DNA of 64,000 bases, taken from positions 721 through 64,720 of the forward strand of contig CAYQMG010000045.1 of assembly GCA_964418585.1 (NCBI GenBank), in the 5' to 3' direction. The position numbers were made by a program, and so were the translations under genes. This document shows, in pieces, positions 15,025-24,929 of this stretch (position 1 is the stretch's first letter; every line of letters starts with the position of its first letter). This DNA is from an uncultured Gammaproteobacteria bacterium. GTDB lineage: Bacteria > Myxococcota_A > UBA796 > JAJRTE01. The notes beneath the pieces are model-generated. The model was not told the origin of the DNA. It did no database searches and worked only from the letters and a program-made list of their open reading frames with translations.

Positions 15025-15951
15025 TCATCCTGTGATGGAGGTGGCCTCCTCGAGCTGAGCTGTCGGCGGCGGCCCGTCGAACGAGACGCGGAATCCGTCG
15101 GAACTGTAGTCCTTGTGAACCATTCTGACCAGTTCCCCCTGCTCGATCTCATACAGGTTATAGGACGCTTGCACCGGGTGCTCGAGGCCATGATCGTAGG
15201 CGGCGGAGCCGGCGTTGCACAGCAAGGTGACGCGCCCGTCGTCGTGCTTCAGGTGGTTGATGTAGCGCTGGTGGTCATGTCCGTGGAGCACGAGTTCCAC
15301 CGGGTGGCGCTGCAGCACGTCCATGAGGATCTCCCGATTCTCCAGCCTTCGCCAGAACTTGCCGGGTGCTTCGCCGTGTTCGTTCAGCAACGGGTAGTGG
15401 ATGAGGAGCACCTTGAATCGCCGGGCCACGTCCCGCCGAAGCAGCACCGCCTCCAGCCGTTCAGCCTCCACCGGGTCGACCCGCCCGGATGCGCCGAAGC
15501 CCGCCCGATTCGGGTTCATCCCCAGCACAGCGACATCGCCGAGGAAATGCAACGTGGGGTAGGTGGGCTCCTCGAGCGACGCACCAGGAGTGCGAATGTA
15601 CTGCCCGAAATACTGCTCGATGCGATGGAAACGAGCGGCTCCGGCGGTGTAGTAGTCGTGATTCCCCGGCACGATGATGGTGGGAAACCGTGACAGAATC
15701 GGCTCGAGTGCGTCTCGGGCAACCACGAACTCGGCGGGCGATCCCAGGGCGGTGATGTCCCCTGTGATGAGCACGGCGTCGGGGTGATCTGCGACCACGG
15801 CCTGGATGGCCTCGGCCGCGATGCGTGGATTGAAGCGTGCCACCCGCCGGAAGGCGAGCAGGTTGGCAAGCCCTATCAACCGCTTGGTTCTGAGTCCGGA
15901 CCAGTCTGGAAACCGGTAGAAGTGGAGGTCCGAAAGGTGGGCCAACAGCAT
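15025..15951 (-). CDS. Metallophosphoesterase (calcineurin-like phosphoesterase)
   Basis: Motifs LSDLHF, ITGDITALG, GNHDY, LLIHYP, LHGHDHQ match the calcineurin-like phosphoesterase signature (D-x-H...GD...GNHD/E...GH-x-H). Confidence 0.8.
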   Translation of the reverse strand: MLLAHLSDLHFYRFPDWSGLRTKRLIGLANLLAFRRVARFNPRIAAEAIQAVVADHPDAVLITGDITALGSPAEFVVARDALEPILSRFPTIIVPGNHDYYTAGAARFHRIEQYFGQYIRTPGASLEEPTYPTLHFLGDVAVLGMNPNRAGFGASGRVDPVEAERLEAVLLRRDVARRFKVLLIHYPLLNEHGEAPGKFWRRLENREILMDVLQRHPVELVLHGHDHQRYINHLKHDDGRVTLLCNAGSAAYDHGLEHPVQASYNLYEIEQGELVRMVHKDYSSDGFRVSFDGPPPTAQLEEATSITG

Positions 15952-15981
15952 GAGCGACTCCCATCCCGCCCCCGGGGCCTG

Positions 15982-16860
15982 TTACCTTCTGACATGCCTG
16001 CGGGGGGTTCTCGACCGCGGGGACCGGGTGTTCCGGTCGCGCCTGGTCGGCTTTTTCTTGCGCGGCCGCTTTCCGACATCCCGATGTTCATTCAAGATGG
16101 CCGCGATCTGGGCCTCCGGTACCGGGTCAGGCAGGCCGGGCGGAGCGTCTGCCAGGGCTTTCAAGGCGTGCAGTTCGTCGGAAGACACCTTGCGAAAGGT
16201 CCCGGGGGCGAGTCCCTTGACGCTGATGGGACCGAACTGAACCCGCTTGAGCTTGGTGACGGGGTGTCGAAGCTTCATCATGGCGTAACGCAACAGGCGG
16301 TGCCGTACTTCACGCACGGTAACCCGAAGCCAGGCGTTCCGGCCGGTCACGGAGACGAGTGTCACCTCCATGGGCAAGGTACGTCCACCCTGGAGGGGGA
16401 CGCCGACCCGGAGTTTTGCGAGTGTCCTGTCGTCCGGGATTCCGCGGACTTTCATGAGATAGGTTCGCGGGATCCCGGCTCGAGGGTGGTTCAGGGCGTG
16501 GGCGAGGCGGCGGTCAGAGGTCATGAGCATGATCCCCTCGTCGTCGGCCTCGAGCCGGGCCACGGGAACGAGGAGGCGCTTGACACGGCGCAGCTTTTCC
16601 ATGACCGTGGGCCGACCCAACGGGTCGGACGGAACGGACAGCACCCCTCGAGGCTTGTTGACCAGGAGGTAGATCGGTTCGATGGGACGCACGACCTTGC
16701 CGTCGACCTTGAAAACGTCCTGTTCCACCACCACGGGGTGCGCCGGCTCACGGACCACCCGCCCGTTGACCATCACACGTCCCTCGAGCACCATGCGCTC
16801 CGCTTCACGCCTGGTGGCGACCCCGAGTTCGGCCAGGGCCTTGGACAATCGTTGCTTCAT
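15982..16860 (-). CDS. rluB: 23S rRNA pseudouridine synthase (RsuA/RluB family) with Arg-rich C-terminal tail
   Basis: S4 domain (MKQRLSKALAELGVATRREAERMVLEGRVMVNGRVV). Catalytic motif region LLVNKPRGVLS...VARLEADDEGIMLMTSD. Start at MKQ (16860). Confidence 0.85.
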   Translation of the reverse strand: MKQRLSKALAELGVATRREAERMVLEGRVMVNGRVVREPAHPVVVEQDVFKVDGKVVRPIEPIYLLVNKPRGVLSVPSDPLGRPTVMEKLRRVKRLLVPVARLEADDEGIMLMTSDRRLAHALNHPRAGIPRTYLMKVRGIPDDRTLAKLRVGVPLQGGRTLPMEVTLVSVTGRNAWLRVTVREVRHRLLRYAMMKLRHPVTKLKRVQFGPISVKGLAPGTFRKVSSDELHALKALADAPPGLPDPVPEAQIAAILNEHRDVGKRPRKKKPTRRDRNTRSPRSRTPRRHVRR

Positions 16861-16952
16861 GCTGCCCGGTCCTCTCCTGTTGAAGGGTGCGCCACCTCCC
16901 CGTCCCAAGCAGACGGAGAGAATACGGCGGAAATGGCCGGGGCGCCTCCGGT

Positions 16953-17678
16953 CTAGTCACCCCTGCTCCCGGCACGCTCGCCACGGCCGGCCGTTCCAGT
17001 GGCTGCCGATTCCTCCATCCCGCTCAACGTGCTCAATTCGCCCATGGTCGGAAGCTCGGCCAGACTCCGGAGTCCGAACATCCGCAGGAAATCACGCGTG
17101 GTCCCGTAGATCAAGGGACGACCGATGTCGTCCTTGCGGCCCAAAATCCGGACCAACCGCTTCTCGAGCAGGGTTCGGAGCACCGAACCGGATTCCACCC
17201 CACGCACAGCCTCCACTTCGGCCCTCGTCACCGGCTGCCGGTAGGCGATGATCGCGAGACACTCCAGCGCAGCGCGGCTCAGTCGAGGGGGACGGCTCTT
17301 GACCAGAGCACGCAGCCAGGGGGCCAAGTCGGCTCGAGTGCGAAACACCAGCCCACCTGCGACCTCCTTCAACACGATACCACGACGCTCCAGCGAAAGG
17401 TCCGTTCTCAGCCGCTCGATCACCGACAGGAGTTCCTCGCGCTCCGCTCCCAGGATATCCCTGAGTTCCCGGAGGGTCACCGGCCGCTCCGCCGCAAAGA
17501 TCAGCGCTTCCACCACTGCCAGCCGCAAGTCTTCACCCATCTCAAGCCAGGGAGGCCGCTTCTCGTCTCGAGCCGAAACCCCCGGCACATCCGCCTGCGC
17601 CCCCGCCTGGACACCGGATGGTTCCGCCCCTCCTTCACCGGTGGAGATCAACCCTTCCATGTCGTGCGTGTTTTCCAT
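16953..17678 (-). CDS. scpB: Segregation and condensation protein B
   Basis: The ScpB winged-helix core is present (AVVEALIFAAERPVTLRELRDIL...GIVLKEVAGGLVFRT...ALECLAIIAYRQPVTRAEVEAVRGV...RPLIYGTTRDFL). It sits directly upstream of rluB, the conserved scpB-rluB arrangement. No scpA is upstream. Confidence 0.8.
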   Translation of the reverse strand: MENTHDMEGLISTGEGGAEPSGVQAGAQADVPGVSARDEKRPPWLEMGEDLRLAVVEALIFAAERPVTLRELRDILGAEREELLSVIERLRTDLSLERRGIVLKEVAGGLVFRTRADLAPWLRALVKSRPPRLSRAALECLAIIAYRQPVTRAEVEAVRGVESGSVLRTLLEKRLVRILGRKDDIGRPLIYGTTRDFLRMFGLRSLAELPTMGELSTLSGMEESAATGTAGRGERAGSRGD

Positions 17679-18307
17679 CGGGGTGCCAAGGTATCATCCC
17701 GCTCCATCAACGGCAACCGGAAGCTTCCCGAACGGGGCCCCCGGGTCGCCCTGGACCGGGTAGGTCGCCTCGAGACCGCCCGCGCTGGTTGCAGGCCAAC
17801 TGTAGTTCAGGGCGCACGATTGTCAAGCAGGGGACCTGACGCGAGGAAGAAAAAAAGAGGGGACAGGGGTACTCGGTATCGCAGGGGATTTGAGTATAAC
17901 CAGTGGAAGGGCGAAGAGAGCCCCCTGTCCGACAGGCCGGAGTGCCGCAGTGGTCGCGAGGCGACCGTGGACCGAACCGTTTCCTGGAATCACGCCTGCC
18001 ATCGCTTCTCCCCGAGTCGGCCCTGTCGTCTCGCGCCGTCGGCCCATCGAAATGCGCGAGGGGCACTGGTTCGGGTCGGGGAACGAAGTGCTGGCGATTC
18101 TCCGACACCCTCTGAGGCGAGGAGGTACAAGCAGCATGCCAGGATGGGCGAGGGCGTGGGATTCTTTTCGATCTTGCCGGAAAACGCCGGGTCATTCCGG
18201 GTTGGCGGGGGGATTACCGCGGCAGGATTGAGCGGCGGTGCTGTAATCCGTCCAGTTCCACCGTACCGAGTCCGGGAATTCCGGACAGAGTCCGAAAAAA
18301 TCGGACG

Positions 18308-19717: not shown

Positions 19718-20059
19718 CCCTGTTTCCTCCCCCACGGGCCGGTTTCCGATTCGGGAATCCGGCTTCATCGAACAGATCAGCGGTGTTCCCGCTCCCCGCG
19801 AGACACGGTTGTCCATCTTAGCGCCGCCCACAGGTCCTTGCAAGCGTGCACGAGCGTTCCCGGAGACGCGGGGGCCGGCCAGTCTCGAGGTCCCCTCCGG
19901 GAAAGAGGTACCGGCCGACGCCTCCGAGACCGGGCACCGGGCCGCCCGCCACGTCTCGCCTCCAGTTGTTGACACCTCGAGCACCAACCCGTTACCATGC
20001 CCGCGTGCGTCTCCTGCGCATTGCGGCGAACACGGAAACCTGGTGATGGAGACCCGGGC

Positions 20060-21718
20060 ATGCGGCCAGCAACCGCCCTTCCCTTGCCGATGCTCTTTTG
20101 GCTTGCGTCCGTTCTGTGGTCAGCGCTCCCGTCGTGCCAGCCCGAGGACACTTCGCCGGTGCTGGAGGTGGGGTTCGTGCTCCCCGAAGATTCGAGTTTC
20201 CTCGGGGAGGTGTCCACGTACACGGCTCAAGTCACCTACTCCGGCGGGGAAAAGAACGGCATGCTCCTCGAGACCACGTTCCCGGCCGGGTCTGTGGACG
20301 CGGTGTTCGACGGCCTTCCCCCCACCGGTGAAGGCGAAACGGTGCAGATCCACGTGGAAGGACACGCGACCGGGGACGGGGCGGAAGCGCCGGTCATTAC
20401 ACGGGCCACGTCCGGACCGCTGACCCTTGCGGCGGGGAGTGCAACCCGGGTAAGGCTTTTCCTCGGGCAGGTCGGGGCGGTCAACATGCTGGTATCGCGG
20501 TTGCCTACCGGCGCAATGGGCCAGGTCGCGGTCAGCTTTCCAGACGGCACCACCTTGATTGCCGGCGGGATGGACAGGAGCGGCAACCTGACGCCGGACA
20601 CCACCTGGTTCGACGACGGCTTCACAGGGCTCGAGTTCGGGCTGGTGACGCCGGGTCCCCCTCTTTCGACGCCTCGAATGCACCACGTGGCAGCGCTCCT
20701 GGATGAATCCGGGCAAGACGGCCCTGTGCAGGCCGCGCTCCTGGGCGGAGACACGTTTGAACGCTTGACGCTCACCGATGTGGAGGGCCTCCAGGTTCCG
20801 AGTATCGACCTGGGCGGCCCGGCTCCCCTGGCATCGGTGGAAACCCTGACGCCGGGTGCCGACGGGTTCGAGGCCGGTCCCCCGCTCCGGTCGCCTCGAG
20901 CGTACGCCACGGCCTTGCAACCTTCCTCGTCCACGGTGCTCCTCTGTGGAGGGATCGAGTCCCAGGAAGGAAGTTCTGCGATTTCCGATACCTGTGAGCA
21001 CTGGCGCGCCGATGGCACCACCAACACTTTCGGCCTTCACTACCGCCGCGTGCTCCATCAGGCGACGTGGCTTCGGAGCGGTGAGGTACTGCTGACCGGC
21101 GGGACATCGGAGCCCTTGCTGTCGCCGGAATCCCTGTTGCTCGAGAACGAGGTGTTCGATCCGGAGGCGCCCTCCCCTTCTCGTGCCGGCTTCCTCCTCT
21201 ATCCGAGGGTGGGCCACCAGGCGGTGGTCATTCCGGGCACGGACGGCGAAGTGCTTGTGACCGGGGGGTACACTCGAGAACCGACCCCATCAGGCGCGGC
21301 GTTCCGCCTCACCCTTGCGGAATACGCGGAGATCTACCAGCCGGAAAGCGCGTCCTCCCGGCCGTTCGTCCGAGGTCCGGCCATGCAGTGCCCCCGAGCA
21401 TTTCACAAGGCTGTTCCGGTCGGCGACGGGTTGGTGCTCATCGTGGGCGGAATCGGGGCCGATGGTCACAGCTTGCCCCCGCCCGAACTCTATGATCACC
21501 TTGCCAATGATGGAGCAGGCGCTTTCCTTCTCCTGGACGACTCGGATACCCTGTGCGGACAGGGGGTGGAGGCGTCCGGCCCACTCCTCTCCGTGAACGG
21601 CCCCACGGCCTCGAGGCTCAGTACCGGGGACGTGTTGATTGGGGGTGGAGACTGGAACCCTGGCAACGGCGGGGGTGCTGACGATGCAGGGCTGGCCGTG
21701 TTCGTTGCACCGCGGTAG
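20060..21718 (+). CDS. Kelch-repeat (beta-propeller) lipoprotein
   Basis: Signal peptide with lipobox (LWSALPSC). Multiple Kelch-like repeats with GG doublets (LIAGGMD, ALLGGD, LLCGGIE, LLTGGT, LVTGGY, LIVGGIG, LIGGGD). Confidence 0.65.
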   Translation: MRPATALPLPMLFWLASVLWSALPSCQPEDTSPVLEVGFVLPEDSSFLGEVSTYTAQVTYSGGEKNGMLLETTFPAGSVDAVFDGLPPTGEGETVQIHVEGHATGDGAEAPVITRATSGPLTLAAGSATRVRLFLGQVGAVNMLVSRLPTGAMGQVAVSFPDGTTLIAGGMDRSGNLTPDTTWFDDGFTGLEFGLVTPGPPLSTPRMHHVAALLDESGQDGPVQAALLGGDTFERLTLTDVEGLQVPSIDLGGPAPLASVETLTPGADGFEAGPPLRSPRAYATALQPSSSTVLLCGGIESQEGSSAISDTCEHWRADGTTNTFGLHYRRVLHQATWLRSGEVLLTGGTSEPLLSPESLLLENEVFDPEAPSPSRAGFLLYPRVGHQAVVIPGTDGEVLVTGGYTREPTPSGAAFRLTLAEYAEIYQPESASSRPFVRGPAMQCPRAFHKAVPVGDGLVLIVGGIGADGHSLPPPELYDHLANDGAGAFLLLDDSDTLCGQGVEASGPLLSVNGPTASRLSTGDVLIGGGDWNPGNGGGADDAGLAVFVAPR

Positions 21719-21784: not shown

Positions 21785-22261
21785 TCAGCGGGCATACTCG
21801 GCGACCGCGTCACAGGCGTTGTCCGTGCCGCTCTTGAGGCGGAGGTTGGTGAGGATGACCTCGTCGGTCTGGAGCTTGCACTGCTCGTCCTGCTGCGAGG
21901 TGATGTCCTCGTAGGCGCGACGACACTGGACGAGTTCGTCGTCCGAGAACGGCACGCCGCAGGAATCGAACACGTCGGCCATGCGGTCACAAAGTTTCTG
22001 GCACTCGTTCTTGCAAGCAACGCTGAACAGGGCGCTAGCCGCCAGGAGCGCAAGGACCGCCGGAGACCGCCAACGCCTGGGTGCAGCCGTGCTGAAGTGC
22101 GTCGCACCAGGGAGCGTCTCCAGTTTCGGCGAGTTGCCGGAATTTTCTGCACAGGTCACGCCGTTGCTCGTAATCTCGCTCACGTGTGTCCACCACTGCG
22201 TCGAAATCCCTGAGAAGAGCTTCGAAGCAGGTTGCCTTGCAACAGGATCGTAGCTCGTCAC
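21785..22261 (-). CDS. Cys-rich lipoprotein, paralog 1 (start uncertain)
   Basis: Signal peptide RRWRSPAVLALLAASALFSVAC followed by a Cys-rich domain (C-x3-CQKLCD...). The signal-peptide codons overlap the 3' end of paralog 2 in another frame. No canonical start codon lies immediately before the signal peptide; the table ATG at 22261 gives a 64-aa N-terminal extension. Confidence 0.4.
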   Translation of the reverse strand: MTSYDPVARQPASKLFSGISTQWWTHVSEITSNGVTCAENSGNSPKLETLPGATHFSTAAPRRWRSPAVLALLAASALFSVACKNECQKLCDRMADVFDSCGVPFSDDELVQCRRAYEDITSQQDEQCKLQTDEVILTNLRLKSGTDNACDAVAEYAR

Positions 22262-22541
22262 AGGTGGGATTCAAGAAGTCTTGCTCACACCGCCTGGCCT
22301 CGTAGTCAGCTTGCTGCCTCAGATTCTGCGGATCGCTGGTGCCAGGCTCGCAGCGGTCCGGATGGTATCGGTCGTGCGCTGCGAACAGGGCGCACCGGAG
22401 GTCCATCTGGTAAAAGGACTCGCACAGACGTTGACACCGGTTGGGGGTGCAGGCCATCCAGCTCGAGCAGAGCGAGAGGATTGCGAGCGGTACCAGGTAG
22501 CGAGGCCACGGCACGACGGCACCCTCCACGGGCCGGTTCAT
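22035..22541 (-). CDS. Cys-rich lipoprotein, paralog 2
   Basis: Start at MNRPVEG. Signal peptide with lipobox (LAILSLCSSWMAC). About 10 Cys, with a shared C-x3-CQRLCE motif. Similar to paralog 1 (C-x3-CQKLCD). Confidence 0.5.
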   Translation of the reverse strand: MNRPVEGAVVPWPRYLVPLAILSLCSSWMACTPNRCQRLCESFYQMDLRCALFAAHDRYHPDRCEPGTSDPQNLRQQADYEARRCEQDFLNPTCDELRSCCKATCFEALLRDFDAVVDTRERDYEQRRDLCRKFRQLAETGDAPWCDALQHGCTQALAVSGGPCAPGG

Positions 22542-22650
22542 GGGCTGGGCAGGCCCGGACGCAAGGGCGCGGGGTTGCCCCGAATGGAGACACGGGCCGA
22601 TTCGGCCGGCGGAGTACCGGCAAGGTCGACCGCCCATTCGGGGGGAATTC

Positions 22651-22683
22651 TGTCACGACGCCTGTCAGGCGTCAAGCCTGTCA
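22651..22683. promoter_or_regulatory. Inverted repeat GACGCC-TGTCA-GGCGTC with TGTCA triplet in the divergent intergenic region
   Basis: TGTCA occurs at 22651, 22663 and 22679. A perfect 6-bp inverted repeat (GACGCC/GGCGTC) flanks the central TGTCA. It lies between the Cys-rich lipoprotein gene and the radical SAM gene. Confidence 0.3.
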
Positions 22684-22773
22684 TCCTCCTCGACGGACCT
22701 GGGAGGCGCTGGTATACTTCAAATTCGATTCGTGAATCATGCCTGGTCCGGCGCAAGGTGGCTCGAAGGGGCG

Positions 22774-23607
22774 ATGAGGGAACCCATTCACTGCGGCGTG
22801 TTGCAGATCGAACCGACCGACGTGTGCAACCTTCGGTGCCGGATGTGCGCCCCTCAGCTCGAGGCGTCGAGGACCGTGCACGGGTCGGTTCCCAAGGGGT
22901 ACATGTCCCTGTCCGTGCTGCGCCGGATTGTGGAGGGCATTGCACGCAGTCCCGTGCGGTTCGACCACCTGATCTTTCAGTGGCTGGGGGAACCGACCCT
23001 GCACCCGCGCCTGGTGGACATGGTGAGCCTGTGTCACGAGCGTATCCGGGACCGCTTCGACTACTTCCGGATCGACACGAACGGGGTGGCACTGACCCCC
23101 GAGAAGATAGACGGACTGGTGGAGATCTACGAGCGGGATCGCGGGTTTCCGCTGCTTATCGTCTTCTCTCTGGACGCGGTGACCGAGGCCACTTACCGAC
23201 GGGTGAAAGGAGCGCCTCGAGGTACCTTTTCACGGGTCCTGAAGCACATTGATCACCTGCTGGACCGGCGGGCGGCGTTGAAGGGGGAGCCGGTGAACCT
23301 GAACCTGGAGTTTCAGTTCGTGCTCCAGGGCGGGAATGCGCACGAGACGCGGGCGTTCCTGGAGTACTGGGACCAATACCTGGCCGAGGGGCGACGAGGG
23401 GTCGGGTACAACGAGGTGATGATCAAACGCCTCAGCGTGGCGGCAGGAGGGGAAGGGCAACGGCGGGCGGACGAACTTTACGACGAGACGATGCGGATTT
23501 TTGGGATCCGGCCGTTCGACAAGCCGCACATTCACCTGGCGACCTGGAAGGACAGGACATGGGAACGGGACGTCGCCCCTGCCCGGGGCTCTGGAAAACC
23601 CCTGTAA
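22774..23607 (+). CDS. Radical SAM protein (CxxxCxxC core), N-terminal and core part; apparently truncated by a frameshift
   Basis: Start at MREPIHCGV. Radical SAM cluster motif CNLRCRMC. The ORF ends at 23607 after ...TWKDRTWERDVAPARGSGKPL; the SPASM-like continuation is in another frame. Confidence 0.65.
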   Translation: MREPIHCGVLQIEPTDVCNLRCRMCAPQLEASRTVHGSVPKGYMSLSVLRRIVEGIARSPVRFDHLIFQWLGEPTLHPRLVDMVSLCHERIRDRFDYFRIDTNGVALTPEKIDGLVEIYERDRGFPLLIVFSLDAVTEATYRRVKGAPRGTFSRVLKHIDHLLDRRAALKGEPVNLNLEFQFVLQGGNAHETRAFLEYWDQYLAEGRRGVGYNEVMIKRLSVAAGGEGQRRADELYDETMRIFGIRPFDKPHIHLATWKDRTWERDVAPARGSGKPL

Positions 23608-23897
23608 TCCGATGGGATGGCCAGCTCACCGTATGCTGCGCGGATGTGCGGGGCCAGATCGAGGTCGGCAACGTGGCAGAGGCAGACTTTGACACACTCT
23701 GGAATGGACCGCGCATGACCCGGTACCGTATCTGGCACATTCTGGGCCAGTTTGACCGCATGCCTCTGTGCGCCGGTTGCGGTGGCATCAACTTCTATCG
23801 AATGACCGATGACGAAATTCGGGCCTATCTTGCCCGGATTGGTCGTCTGGACCTGTTTCCTCGCTATCTCGCCCGCATGAAGGAGGCGGGGGAATAG
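23559..23897 (+). CDS. SPASM/twitch-domain C-terminal fragment of the radical SAM protein (different frame)
   Basis: RPCPGLWKTPVIRWDGQLTVCCAD and PLCAGCGG are classic SPASM auxiliary-cluster motifs. It overlaps the upstream rSAM ORF by 49 nt in another frame, so this is either a frameshifted gene (pseudogene or sequencing error) or programmed frameshifting. Confidence 0.55.
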   Translation: MGTGRRPCPGLWKTPVIRWDGQLTVCCADVRGQIEVGNVAEADFDTLWNGPRMTRYRIWHILGQFDRMPLCAGCGGINFYRMTDDEIRAYLARIGRLDLFPRYLARMKEAGE

Positions 23898-23906
23898 GCG
23901 GAACTC

Positions 23907-24929
23907 ATGGGGACCTCGCCAACCGATCCCGACGATCGTTTCCTGCTGTGGGTGGGGTTTTCCGCGCTGCTCCATCTGGCTGTTGCCGCCGCACTGCCAG
24001 GTCCGGGAACGGGGTTGACCGTCCAGCAGGCGGATTTCACGGTGCAGTGGGTGGCGCTCGCCACCCCTGTCCCGGCGGCTGCGTTTCCGAGGCATGAGGA
24101 GACCGCGGAGCCGGAGGCGACCGTGGCGACGGCGCCGAAGCAGGTGGACCGCGCGCCCTCGGTACCGCGGGGTTCGCGCCAACCGAATGTCCGTGCGAAC
24201 GCGGGTCGGCCGGAGCCGAGGCAGTCGGATTCGGCCGAGGTATCTGCAGGGAAACTGCCGGAGGCGGTGCTGTCTCCAGAGCGTTGGCCGGGGCTGTCCA
24301 TGCGTGCGACCGACTCGAAGTTGGGGAGCGCGGGAGGGGATCGGCGTGGGGAGGGATCGGATGGCTCTGGATGGGGCGACGGGACCGGCCGCGGCACGGG
24401 GTTGGTTCCGATTCCTGTGGTGGAACGGCGTATCGAGGAGGAGGGGCGGCGCGTTGTGGCCCGGGATCGCGTGGCTCGAGGCCTGGTTTCTCCGGAATTG
24501 AACGCAGTGTCGACCCGCATGGAGTCTGAATGGCGGGTGACCCACGAGGACCTGCAGCGGTGGCCGGTACGCCCGGAGACTCGAGTGGAGTACTACACGC
24601 CGGAGGGAGCGGGTGAGGATGTGCCGGCCACATCCTGCACATACCAGCGTTACTCGCTGGCCCGGGTGCGGGTGACCATCGACCGGGACGGGTCGCTGGT
24701 ATCGTCCGAGATCGTCCGGTCCTCGGGCAGCCGCCGGCTGAACCGGGAGGTGCTGGACCTGGTACGCAAGTCGGCTCCGTTTCCGCCGCCACCCGAGTAC
24801 GAACTGGATGCCTCGGGCACGGTATCCGGGGTGTGGGATGTGGGGGTGAGAGACTACAGTCGATCGTCCTGCTTCTTTTTTCACCGCAGCAAGGTAGTCA
24901 AGGACATCGTGTTCCTGGGTTCCTACTGA
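23907..24929 (+). CDS. TonB C-terminal domain protein (energy transducer TonB-like)
   Basis: N-terminal TM (FLLWVGFSALLHLAVAAAL). Pro/Ala-rich linker. C-terminal TonB-C motif (YPELARRLGIEGTV-like: RVTIDRDGSLVSSEIVRSSGSRRLNREVLDLVRKSAPFPPPP). Confidence 0.65.
   Translation: MGTSPTDPDDRFLLWVGFSALLHLAVAAALPGPGTGLTVQQADFTVQWVALATPVPAAAFPRHEETAEPEATVATAPKQVDRAPSVPRGSRQPNVRANAGRPEPRQSDSAEVSAGKLPEAVLSPERWPGLSMRATDSKLGSAGGDRRGEGSDGSGWGDGTGRGTGLVPIPVVERRIEEEGRRVVARDRVARGLVSPELNAVSTRMESEWRVTHEDLQRWPVRPETRVEYYTPEGAGEDVPATSCTYQRYSLARVRVTIDRDGSLVSSEIVRSSGSRRLNREVLDLVRKSAPFPPPPEYELDASGTVSGVWDVGVRDYSRSSCFFFHRSKVVKDIVFLGSY

Follow-up and report, generated by a model that had tools for sequence, protein, structure and literature searches.

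We describe here a divergent gene pair, a radical S-adenosylmethionine (SAM) enzyme facing a small, Cys-rich, predicted lipoprotein, found in a 64,000-nt stretch of metagenomic DNA (hereafter the window; contig CAYQMG010000045.1 of assembly GCA_964418585.1, deposited as an uncultured Gammaproteobacteria bacterium and placed by GTDB in Myxococcota_A). The pair is the window's copy of an uncharacterised module that is conserved among uncultured Myxococcota. In this copy the enzyme is encoded by two overlapping cistrons, a radical SAM core and a stand-alone auxiliary Fe-S (twitch) subunit, and the lipoprotein by two adjacent paralogous genes on the opposite strand, CysA and CysB (Table 1). An earlier note on this DNA had proposed that the enzyme matures the exported, Cys-rich lipoproteins. 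The coupling of the genes and the non-housekeeping class of the enzyme were confirmed by the present analysis; the substrate relation and a crosslink are things that we still infer.

Conservation of the enzyme-lipoprotein pair

Homologues of the enzyme were sought in one genome per species, and 80 loci were returned of 130 relatives found. All 80 lie in metagenome-assembled genomes labeled Myxococcota, Deltaproteobacteria or with unreliable bin names, and no cultured organism is among the enzyme relatives listed. In a forward test, a hidden Markov model (HMM) derived from the Cys-rich genes was run on the open reading frames (ORFs) flanking these 80 species-level loci, 78 of which were testable (the remaining 2 had no upstream flank). 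A Cys-rich lipoprotein gene was found upstream on the opposite strand in 73 of the 78 (~94%), immediately adjacent to the enzyme gene in 71 and ~5 kb away in L066 and L077, and the HMM had no matches elsewhere in the flanks of the 80 loci. The reverse test started from the lipoprotein only: a narrow alignment of it (A4) brought up 21 metagenome loci. The enzyme was divergent in 18 of the 21, and the other three had 4, 79, and 288 nt of upstream sequence, i.e., among loci with a usable flank the enzyme was present in 18/18. The earlier note had staked its proposal on the genes staying coupled in related genomes, and in both directions they do.

The pairing holds down to 42% enzyme identity, in fused and split forms of the enzyme alike. 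For example, a marine Myxococcota contig whose enzyme is 54% identical to that of the window carries, in the same divergent position, two genes with a lipobox and a C-x3-CQELC motif. At 19 of the 80 loci the lipoprotein gene has been duplicated and the enzyme has stayed single. The two families are also of the same order of size, with 188 lipoprotein clusters among 1.84 billion representative proteins searched exhaustively by HMM and 130 enzyme loci in the species genomes. The pairing is far beyond chance, and it is almost certain that the enzyme and lipoprotein genes are functionally linked. That the genes adjoin only through inherited synteny, with no link in function and with the Cys-rich ORFs incidental, is extremely improbable: the three closest genomes are indeed collinear (sigma-54 regulator-Kelch-CysA-CysB-radical SAM-TonB-kinase), which says little alone, but the pair is kept across enzymes only 42-57% identical while its surroundings change, neither family was found alone in bulk, and the forward (73/78) and reverse (18/18) counts contradict it. 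A literature search on the pairing of radical SAM enzymes with Cys-rich lipoproteins found nothing relevant.

A twitch-type radical SAM enzyme

Radical SAM enzymes are marked by a CxxxCxxC cluster motif and a core that is a partial TIM barrel. The core of the window enzyme carries the cluster motif CNLRCRMC at residues 18-25 and ends in a variable linker that follows a conserved WKDRTWERD. A database protein of 277 aa (P0001), with PF04055 alone, is 99% identical to it. The twitch ORF bears CPGLWKTPVIRWDGQLTVCCAD / MGTGRRPCPGLWKTPVIRWDGQLTVCCAD, which lie outside the core frame. When joined, the two parts scored 49.8 bits against PF04055 and 48.3 bits against PF13186, both above the cut-offs used (29.5 and 21.5 bits, respectively). 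The CxxxCxxC radical SAM gene of the earlier note is therefore real; its description as a single ORF is not, the gene being two cistrons.

A SPASM domain has seven Cys in the pattern CX9-15GX4C-gap-CX2CX5CX3C-gap-C and binds two auxiliary clusters, and a twitch domain is a truncated SPASM domain with the first four Cys and one auxiliary cluster (PMC6231123). In the twitch ORF, the Cys are arranged as C8-x12-G-x4-C26, C27, and then C71-x2-C74. There is no CX5CX3C and no final Cys, i.e., four of the seven SPASM Cys and one adjacent Cys are present, and five Cys are invariant in the C-terminal domain across 77 family members. Because the pattern consists only of C-x12-G-x4-C...C-x2-C plus one Cys, the C-terminal domain classifies, by the published definitions (PMC6231123), as twitch-type and not as full SPASM, and is predicted to bind a cluster. 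Of the two terms in which the earlier note had described this domain (SPASM/twitch), it is the second that stands.

When a profile of the enzyme family was compared with solved structures, BtrN was the best match (E = 1e-9), with anSME and DesII next at E ~0.007. The alignment covered both the BtrN core and its twitch domain (4M7S residues 164-240), with four Cys in register with the cluster ligands. A fold search with the predicted model of a fused homologue (pLDDT 95.5, pTM 0.92) matched, in order, DesII (1.9e-11), BtrN (2.8e-10), anSME (2e-9), SuiB, BlsE (8.5e-09), and PqqE, with TM-scores of 0.45-0.75. Membership in NCBIfam families was judged by a score at or above the curated cut-off of each model, and no model reached its cut-off for the joined enzyme. 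The best was TIGR04317 (W_rSAM_matur; 72.8 bits vs. a cut-off of 380), followed by MoaA (TIGR02666; 40.4 vs. 284), CcpM (TIGR04068; 33.4 vs. 500), TIGR04133 ("rSAM_w_lipo"; 24.8 vs. 425), PapB (NF047865; 24.3 vs. 340), and anSME (TIGR03942; 23.5 vs. 349), and the cut-offs of the ScmE/F models were likewise not reached. The HMM check suggested in the earlier note thus returned no housekeeping classification. An N-terminal, PqqD-like recognition element for peptides that are ribosomally synthesized and modified post-translationally (RiPP recognition element, RRE) is absent: the cluster motif begins at residue 18, and no further Pfam domain was found. Judged by these models, the enzyme fits no housekeeping or cofactor family and represents an undescribed clade of twitch radical SAM enzymes.

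Division of the enzyme into two cistrons

In the window, the twitch ORF is read in the -1 (+2) frame relative to the core and shares 49 nt with it. Its ATG sits within the ACATGG of the core T-W codons, with GGAAGGA 6 nt upstream, and an independent Logan assembly (L116) repeats the 277- and 112-aa calls, the second as a PF13186 gene. The enzyme is a single fused protein in 63 of the 80 species genomes and, as in the window, two ORFs in the other 17 (L012, L047, L048, L051, L053, L056, L059, L061, L064, L066, L067, L069, L071, L073-L075, and L077). The 17 split loci are exactly those with a core 53-74% identical to that of the window, which suggests a single clade. In a comparison across this clade, cores were 52-74% and twitch ORFs 57-77% identical to those of the window. 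The Cys pattern of the twitch domain is kept in 17/17 split species.

The junctions differ within this clade. The window, L001, and L002 have overlaps of 40-70 nt with the ATG inside the conserved T-W codons; L047 and L051 have overlaps of 4 nt, which read ATGA or GTGA; and the marine clade has spacers of 95-147 nt. In L007/L059, our reading of the sequence is that GGAGGAAGG is followed 6 nt on by a GTG, ~35 codons ahead of the twitch Cys, and an upstream C-frame peptide, KGARGSxLLRVL, is conserved in related marine loci. In L059 both parts lie in one frame with two stop codons between them. The break always falls within the linker, whose length varies among the fused members.

The 49-nt overlap, the -1 (+2) relative frame, and the fused protein of 63 of the 80 relatives could all be taken to mean that the two ORFs are an assembly frameshift, a pseudogene, or the product of programmed -1 frameshifting. 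However, the split occurs in 17 species and the window with differing junctions, the twitch ORFs appear to have start codons of their own (a reading made, among the marine loci, for L007/L059), and no slippery heptamer precedes the first twitch Cys codon. The twitch ORFs have also kept their similarity and all of their Cys. Recurrent and varied junctions, retained Cys, and agreement of a repeat assembly therefore make sequencing error, pseudogene formation, and programmed frameshifting very unlikely. A literature search found no report of a naturally split SPASM/twitch enzyme, which is no proof that none exists.

An uncharacterised family of predicted Cys-rich lipoproteins

The earlier note had described two adjacent minus-strand genes whose products each have a signal region and share a Cys motif, and this description was upheld in all but the Cys count. 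CysA and CysB are paralogous, predicted-exported proteins whose hydrophobic signal regions end in ...LFSVAC and ...SSWMAC, respectively. In CysA the signal region ends ...LLAASALFSVAC and the protein reads ...AVLALLAASALFSVAC-KNE-CQKLCD..., and in CysB it ends ...LCSSWMAC and the protein reads ...LAILSLCSSWMAC-TPNR-CQRLCE.... The motif C-x3/4-CQ(K/R)LC(D/E) is common to both, and in an alignment with relatives (A1) its C, C, Q, L, and C are invariant, together with three more Cys. The mature domain of CysA is 76 aa long and has 7 Cys, counting that of the lipobox, and the mature part of CysB has 14, in place of the 8-10 per protein that had been claimed. CysA scored 68.9 bits and CysB 30.6 bits against the family HMM.

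CysA is identical to P0145, which JGI had already called as a gene of 132 aa (start GTG 22183). The CysA start codons nearest the signal peptide are GTG 22159 and GTG 22183, with no ATG, GTG, or TTG closer. These GTGs lie 48 and 56 codons ahead of the lipobox Cys, and from them CysA would share 125-149 nt with the 3' end of CysB; in L001 and L002, the CysA starts lie 16-35 codons ahead of the Cys and also overlap the end of CysB. In the independent assembly, the automatic gene caller omitted CysB and retained the 132-aa CysA. CysB has three close homologues (P0121-P0123, 62-73% identity), on only three contigs, each of which also bears a close homologue of the radical SAM enzyme.

CysA and CysB had no match in Pfam or NCBIfam at E <= 0.01, and 35 family members searched at E <= 1 gave only scattered sub-threshold matches. 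The 188 members of the family are all small single-domain proteins, and the typical member has 85-110 aa, a lipobox, seven invariant Cys, and a very acidic mature part in which Asn at +3 is invariant and Gln at +6 nearly so. In a survey of 97 family sequences, the lipobox Cys was present in 97/97, position -1 was G, A, or S in 94, and position -3 was L in 48; 35/97 fit the strict lipobox [LVI][ASTVI][GAS]C. The boxes of the window (F-S-V-A-C and S-W-M-A-C) have A at -1 and no L, V, or I at -3. An AlphaFold2 model of the CysA mature domain has five helices (pLDDT 91.5), with three Cys on helix 1 and its C-terminal end and one each on helices 2, 3, and 5. A fold search of the PDB with this model gave no match (best E = 3). 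By these models and searches, the seven-Cys, five-helix lipoprotein is an undescribed family without a fold match in the PDB.

Two types of paralogue can be told apart: type 1, with W/F-Y/F-x-Y after CQxLC and extra Cys at the C-terminal end, and type 2, with A-D-x-W/Y-x-x-C-G. CysB of the window is of type 1 and CysA of type 2. The split clade has both types, as does one fused subclade (L013, L014, L017, L018, and L089), and the duplication of the lipoprotein is therefore older than the split of the enzyme.

A receptor kinase in the wider module

In 68 of the 80 loci, the next gene after that of the lipoprotein, and in the same orientation, encodes an orthologous receptor Ser/Thr kinase, as it does in every reverse-test locus with enough downstream sequence. 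The kinase was identified by its score against the kinase of L007 as reference (345-950 bits, compared with ~90 for unrelated kinases); the kinase of L059, which is the same marine contig as L007, scored 1600 bits. The protein consists of an N-terminal kinase domain, one transmembrane segment, and ~250-300 aa of Cys-free PEGA-type repeats. The window, L001, and L002 are without this PEGA kinase and retain the enzyme-lipoprotein pair. A literature search on PEGA kinases together with radical SAM enzymes found nothing relevant.

Possible function of the enzyme

Some background on two known enzymes is useful here. The anaerobic sulfatase-maturating enzyme anSME has no RRE and modifies a Cys or Ser of an unfolded, signal peptide-bearing sulfatase in the cytoplasm before export, and QhpD acts on a small, Cys-rich, acidic periplasmic protein, QhpC, and not on a short peptide. 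The reading that we favour, tentatively and at somewhat less than even confidence, is that the present enzyme is likewise a maturase, with the lipoprotein precursors as its substrates. We draw it from the near-obligate divergent pairing, the duplication of the small gene only, the retention of the pair without the kinase, and the lack of a housekeeping class. By analogy, the duplicated lipoprotein served by a single enzyme would resemble systems with multiple precursors per maturase, and the presence among the nearest structures of anSME, an RRE-less protein modifier, may also count in favour of a maturase, as may the similar sizes of the two families and the divergent promoter-like sites between the genes.

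Under this proposal, two promoters in the shared intergenic region would co-express the enzyme and its precursors, and the enzyme (here the 277-aa core and the 112-aa twitch subunit) would bind its precursor in the cytoplasm while that is still unfolded, in the manner of anSME and sulfatases. The 5'-deoxyadenosyl radical would abstract a hydrogen atom, and the fully Cys-ligated auxiliary cluster would accept a second electron for a net two-electron oxidation. With an auxiliary cluster fully ligated like that of BtrN, either a two-electron oxidation or a crosslink could result: a side chain would be oxidised as by anSME, or a crosslink, thioether or other, would form. The precursor would then be exported, lipidated on the lipobox Cys, and folded as a five-helix domain at the membrane surface, where its presumed partner, in most relatives, is the PEGA ectodomain of the receptor Ser/Thr kinase encoded next to it. 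We infer that the lipoprotein is the substrate and is modified before export, as well as which chemistry takes place and how the kinase ectodomain is linked to it. The more specific version, in which the radical SAM enzyme (split here) modifies the lipoprotein before export and the modified lipoprotein serves as a ligand or co-sensor of the PEGA receptor Ser/Thr kinase, is possible and, in our judgement, on the unlikely side.

Several observations weigh against a maturase. Five testable enzyme loci (L033, L047, L051, L064, and L078) have no lipoprotein gene within 10 kb, and in two further loci (L066 and L077) it lies at a distance of ~5 kb. The linkage of the lipoprotein gene to the kinase gene, same-strand and adjacent, is at least as tight as its linkage to the enzyme, and the conserved module contains a receptor kinase that is absent from the window's own clade. 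The enzyme has no RRE, and its nearest sequence and fold relatives include the sugar-modifying DesII, BtrN, and BlsE. In sactisynthases, a substrate Cys is bound by the auxiliary cluster (PMC6231123); since the four twitch Cys match the fully ligated cluster of BtrN, such binding of a substrate Cys is disfavoured here. The structure prediction called for in the earlier note gave a five-helix globule with a confident standalone fold, in which the six non-lipobox Cys could form three ordinary disulfides; this weakens the crosslink that had been proposed. The invariant N3 and Q6, for their part, would fit a helix N-capping box.

The strongest competing explanation, which we consider possible but less likely than a maturase, is that the enzyme is a BtrN/DesII-like small-molecule (sugar or cyclitol) oxidoreductase and the lipoprotein a disulfide-bonded periplasmic partner of the kinase, both belonging to one regulatory or sensory circuit. 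DesII and BtrN are the top neighbours in the fold search, and BtrN also in the profile search, with BlsE ranking below anSME; the four ligand Cys of the twitch domain are like those of BtrN. The missing RRE, the confident model of the lipoprotein by itself, whose Cys are placed suitably for three disulfides, and the kinase gene behind the lipoprotein gene, on its strand, in 68/80 loci are all consistent with this explanation. However, the genes conserved around the pair include none of a sugar or cofactor pathway, the pair persists without the kinase in the window, L001, and L002, and a divergent pair of radical SAM and Cys-rich, precursor-like genes in ~94% of loci is the usual signature of a maturase and its substrate.

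Comparison with known systems

The closest structural relatives, BtrN (4M7S/4M7T; the 2-deoxy-scyllo-inosamine dehydrogenase of butirosin synthesis) and DesII (8HZV), likewise consist of a core and a C-terminal twitch-type domain. They are the best matches by profile (E 1e-9) and by fold (1.9e-11), and the cluster-ligand Cys of BtrN are aligned. Identity to them is only 13-18%, however, at TM-scores of 0.45-0.75. The window enzyme also differs from them in that it has no aminoglycoside or deoxysugar genes nearby, is paired with a lipoprotein (and in relatives with a kinase), has an extra invariant Cys (CC), and is split in its clade.

Like the present enzyme, anSME is without an RRE, and it is a fold match (E 2e-9, TM ~0.6). 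However, the partner here is no sulfatase but a helical, Cys-rich lipoprotein of 75-150 aa with no C/S-x-P/A-x-R motif. The QhpD-QhpC pair, an analogy drawn in the earlier note, differs in that no NCBIfam equivalog, QhpD included, came near its cut-off, no qhp genes lie nearby, the partner here is predicted to be a regular five-helix lipoprotein, and the enzyme is of the twitch type and not SPASM. Members of TIGR04133, an uncharacterised family, are paired with lipoproteins, and its short name, "rSAM_w_lipo", suggests such a link; the present enzyme, at 24.8 bits against a cut-off of 425, is no member. SkfB is a twitch-domain sactisynthase that modifies a ribosomal peptide, so an enzyme with a twitch domain may still have a protein substrate (PMC6231123). 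SkfB itself is absent among the sequence and fold matches listed for the enzyme here.

Intergenic region and neighbouring genes

The coordinates of the features discussed are given in Table 1.

Table 1. Features of the window and examples from related loci (positions preceded by an L number are those of the locus named).
Feature	Position	Strand	Basis or remark
Radical SAM core, 277 aa	22774..23607	+	PF04055; TAA stop 23605..23607
Stand-alone twitch (auxiliary Fe-S) subunit, 112 aa	23559..23897	+	Separate frame; PF13186; alignment with BtrN
CysA, small acidic Cys-rich lipoprotein-like protein	21785..22159 or 21785..22183	-	ORF and codon table; HMM match
CysB, longer paralogue, 168 aa	22035..22541	-	ORF; alternative ATG 22637 gives 200 aa
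Divergent intergenic region, 232 nt	22542..22773	.	Two sigma-70-like sites and a palindrome
Kelch-repeat exported protein	19997..21718	+	Pfam Kelch_4; convergent with CysA
TonB C-terminal-domain protein	23907..24929	+	10 nt past the twitch stop
Glycosyltransferase/coiled-coil protein, 653 aa	28778..30739	-	Group-1 glycosyltransferase domain and ~270 aa of coiled coil
Two-module radical SAM protein, 902 aa	30774..33482	-	Pfam, NCBIfam, and sequence
PEGA kinase, examples	L007 4728..6875; L092 7557..9494; L093 7444..9420		Orthologues in ~65 other loci
FG-GAP/MopE-like proteins, examples	L007 1..1529; L092 5659..7542 and 15948..17852

The divergent intergenic region, given as ~230 bp in the earlier note, contains two sigma-70-like sites, where 0.2 were expected from shuffled sequences. 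On the plus strand, TCGACG-17-TATACT (22690..22718) stands in front of the radical SAM gene, and on the minus strand TTGACG-17-CAGAAT (22675..22647) stands in front of CysB. The TATACT region aligns with L001. The inverted repeat that had been pointed out is real and longer than described, forming a perfect 17-bp palindrome, GACGCCTG-T-CAGGCGTC (22657..22673), that overlaps the -35 box and spacer of the minus-strand promoter-like site. The palindrome is not conserved in L001, L002, L007, or L092, so it is no family-wide operator. The -10-like CAGAAT on the minus strand ends 9 nt before the alternative CysB ATG at 22637, a spacing that would fit a leaderless transcript for the 200-aa CysB, and no Shine-Dalgarno-like sequence lies upstream of the CysB ATG at 22541. 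A sigma-54 promoter (TGGCAC-N5-TTGCW), sought on account of the neighbouring sigma-54 activator, was rejected: the pattern had 23 matches against 24 expected, none of them intergenic. An Rfam scan of the whole window gave no match.

Orthology of neighbouring genes was assigned by targeted phmmer searches, all-against-all clustering of six-frame ORFs being too noisy owing to antisense ORFs in high-GC DNA. The Kelch gene is a neighbour in the window's clade (L001 and L002), at the position held by the PEGA kinase in most relatives. Its phmmer matches were in L001, L002, L012, and L014, the last being a weak relative in the same position. On the other side, the TonB gene apparently belongs to the same operon as the enzyme and is confined to the window's clade (L001/L012), the wider family being without it; beyond it, this clade has a different kinase, of 1195 aa.

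The 902-aa protein contains two modules. The first is radical SAM/SPASM-like, with CNLACPMC and SPASM-like Cys, and the second (~aa 550-900), paralogous to the small enzyme, has lost CxxxCxxC but keeps four twitch Cys (C810, C828, C874, and C877). In 25 of the 80 loci an orthologue is encoded no more than 10 kb from the small enzyme, and the 902-aa protein is possibly part of the same neighbourhood. Its orthologues are often found beside a long coiled-coil protein. In the window, the 653-aa glycosyltransferase/coiled-coil gene is directly upstream of the 902-aa gene, and in L093 and L094 a coiled-coil protein of ~800 aa occupies the equivalent place. Secreted FG-GAP or MopE-like "Cu-binding" repeat proteins are encoded near the module in several relatives, and in L007 a MYXO-CTERM HExxH protease and a cytochrome c are found beside the large radical SAM gene.

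Significance

The arrangement of a SPASM/twitch-group radical SAM enzyme beside a small, Cys-rich, precursor-like protein is of a known kind. The enzyme clade, the lipoprotein family, the coupling to a PEGA kinase, and the enzyme in two polypeptides have not been described. The conserved two-cistron form amounts to a natural experiment on whether an auxiliary-cluster domain can work as a separate subunit, and the clean, one-to-one genomic signature of two undescribed families makes the question of what the enzyme does directly testable. Should it turn out to be a small-molecule enzyme instead, the genes would still form an unrecognised three-gene unit that occurs only in uncultured lineages. 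If maturation with co-sensing by the kinase were true, the module would give the first example of a lipoprotein matured by a radical SAM enzyme and of a twitch/SPASM enzyme naturally made of two polypeptides. Were the lipoprotein the substrate, radical SAM maturation of proteins would reach Sec-exported lipoproteins and would be tied to eukaryote-like kinase signalling in Myxococcota.

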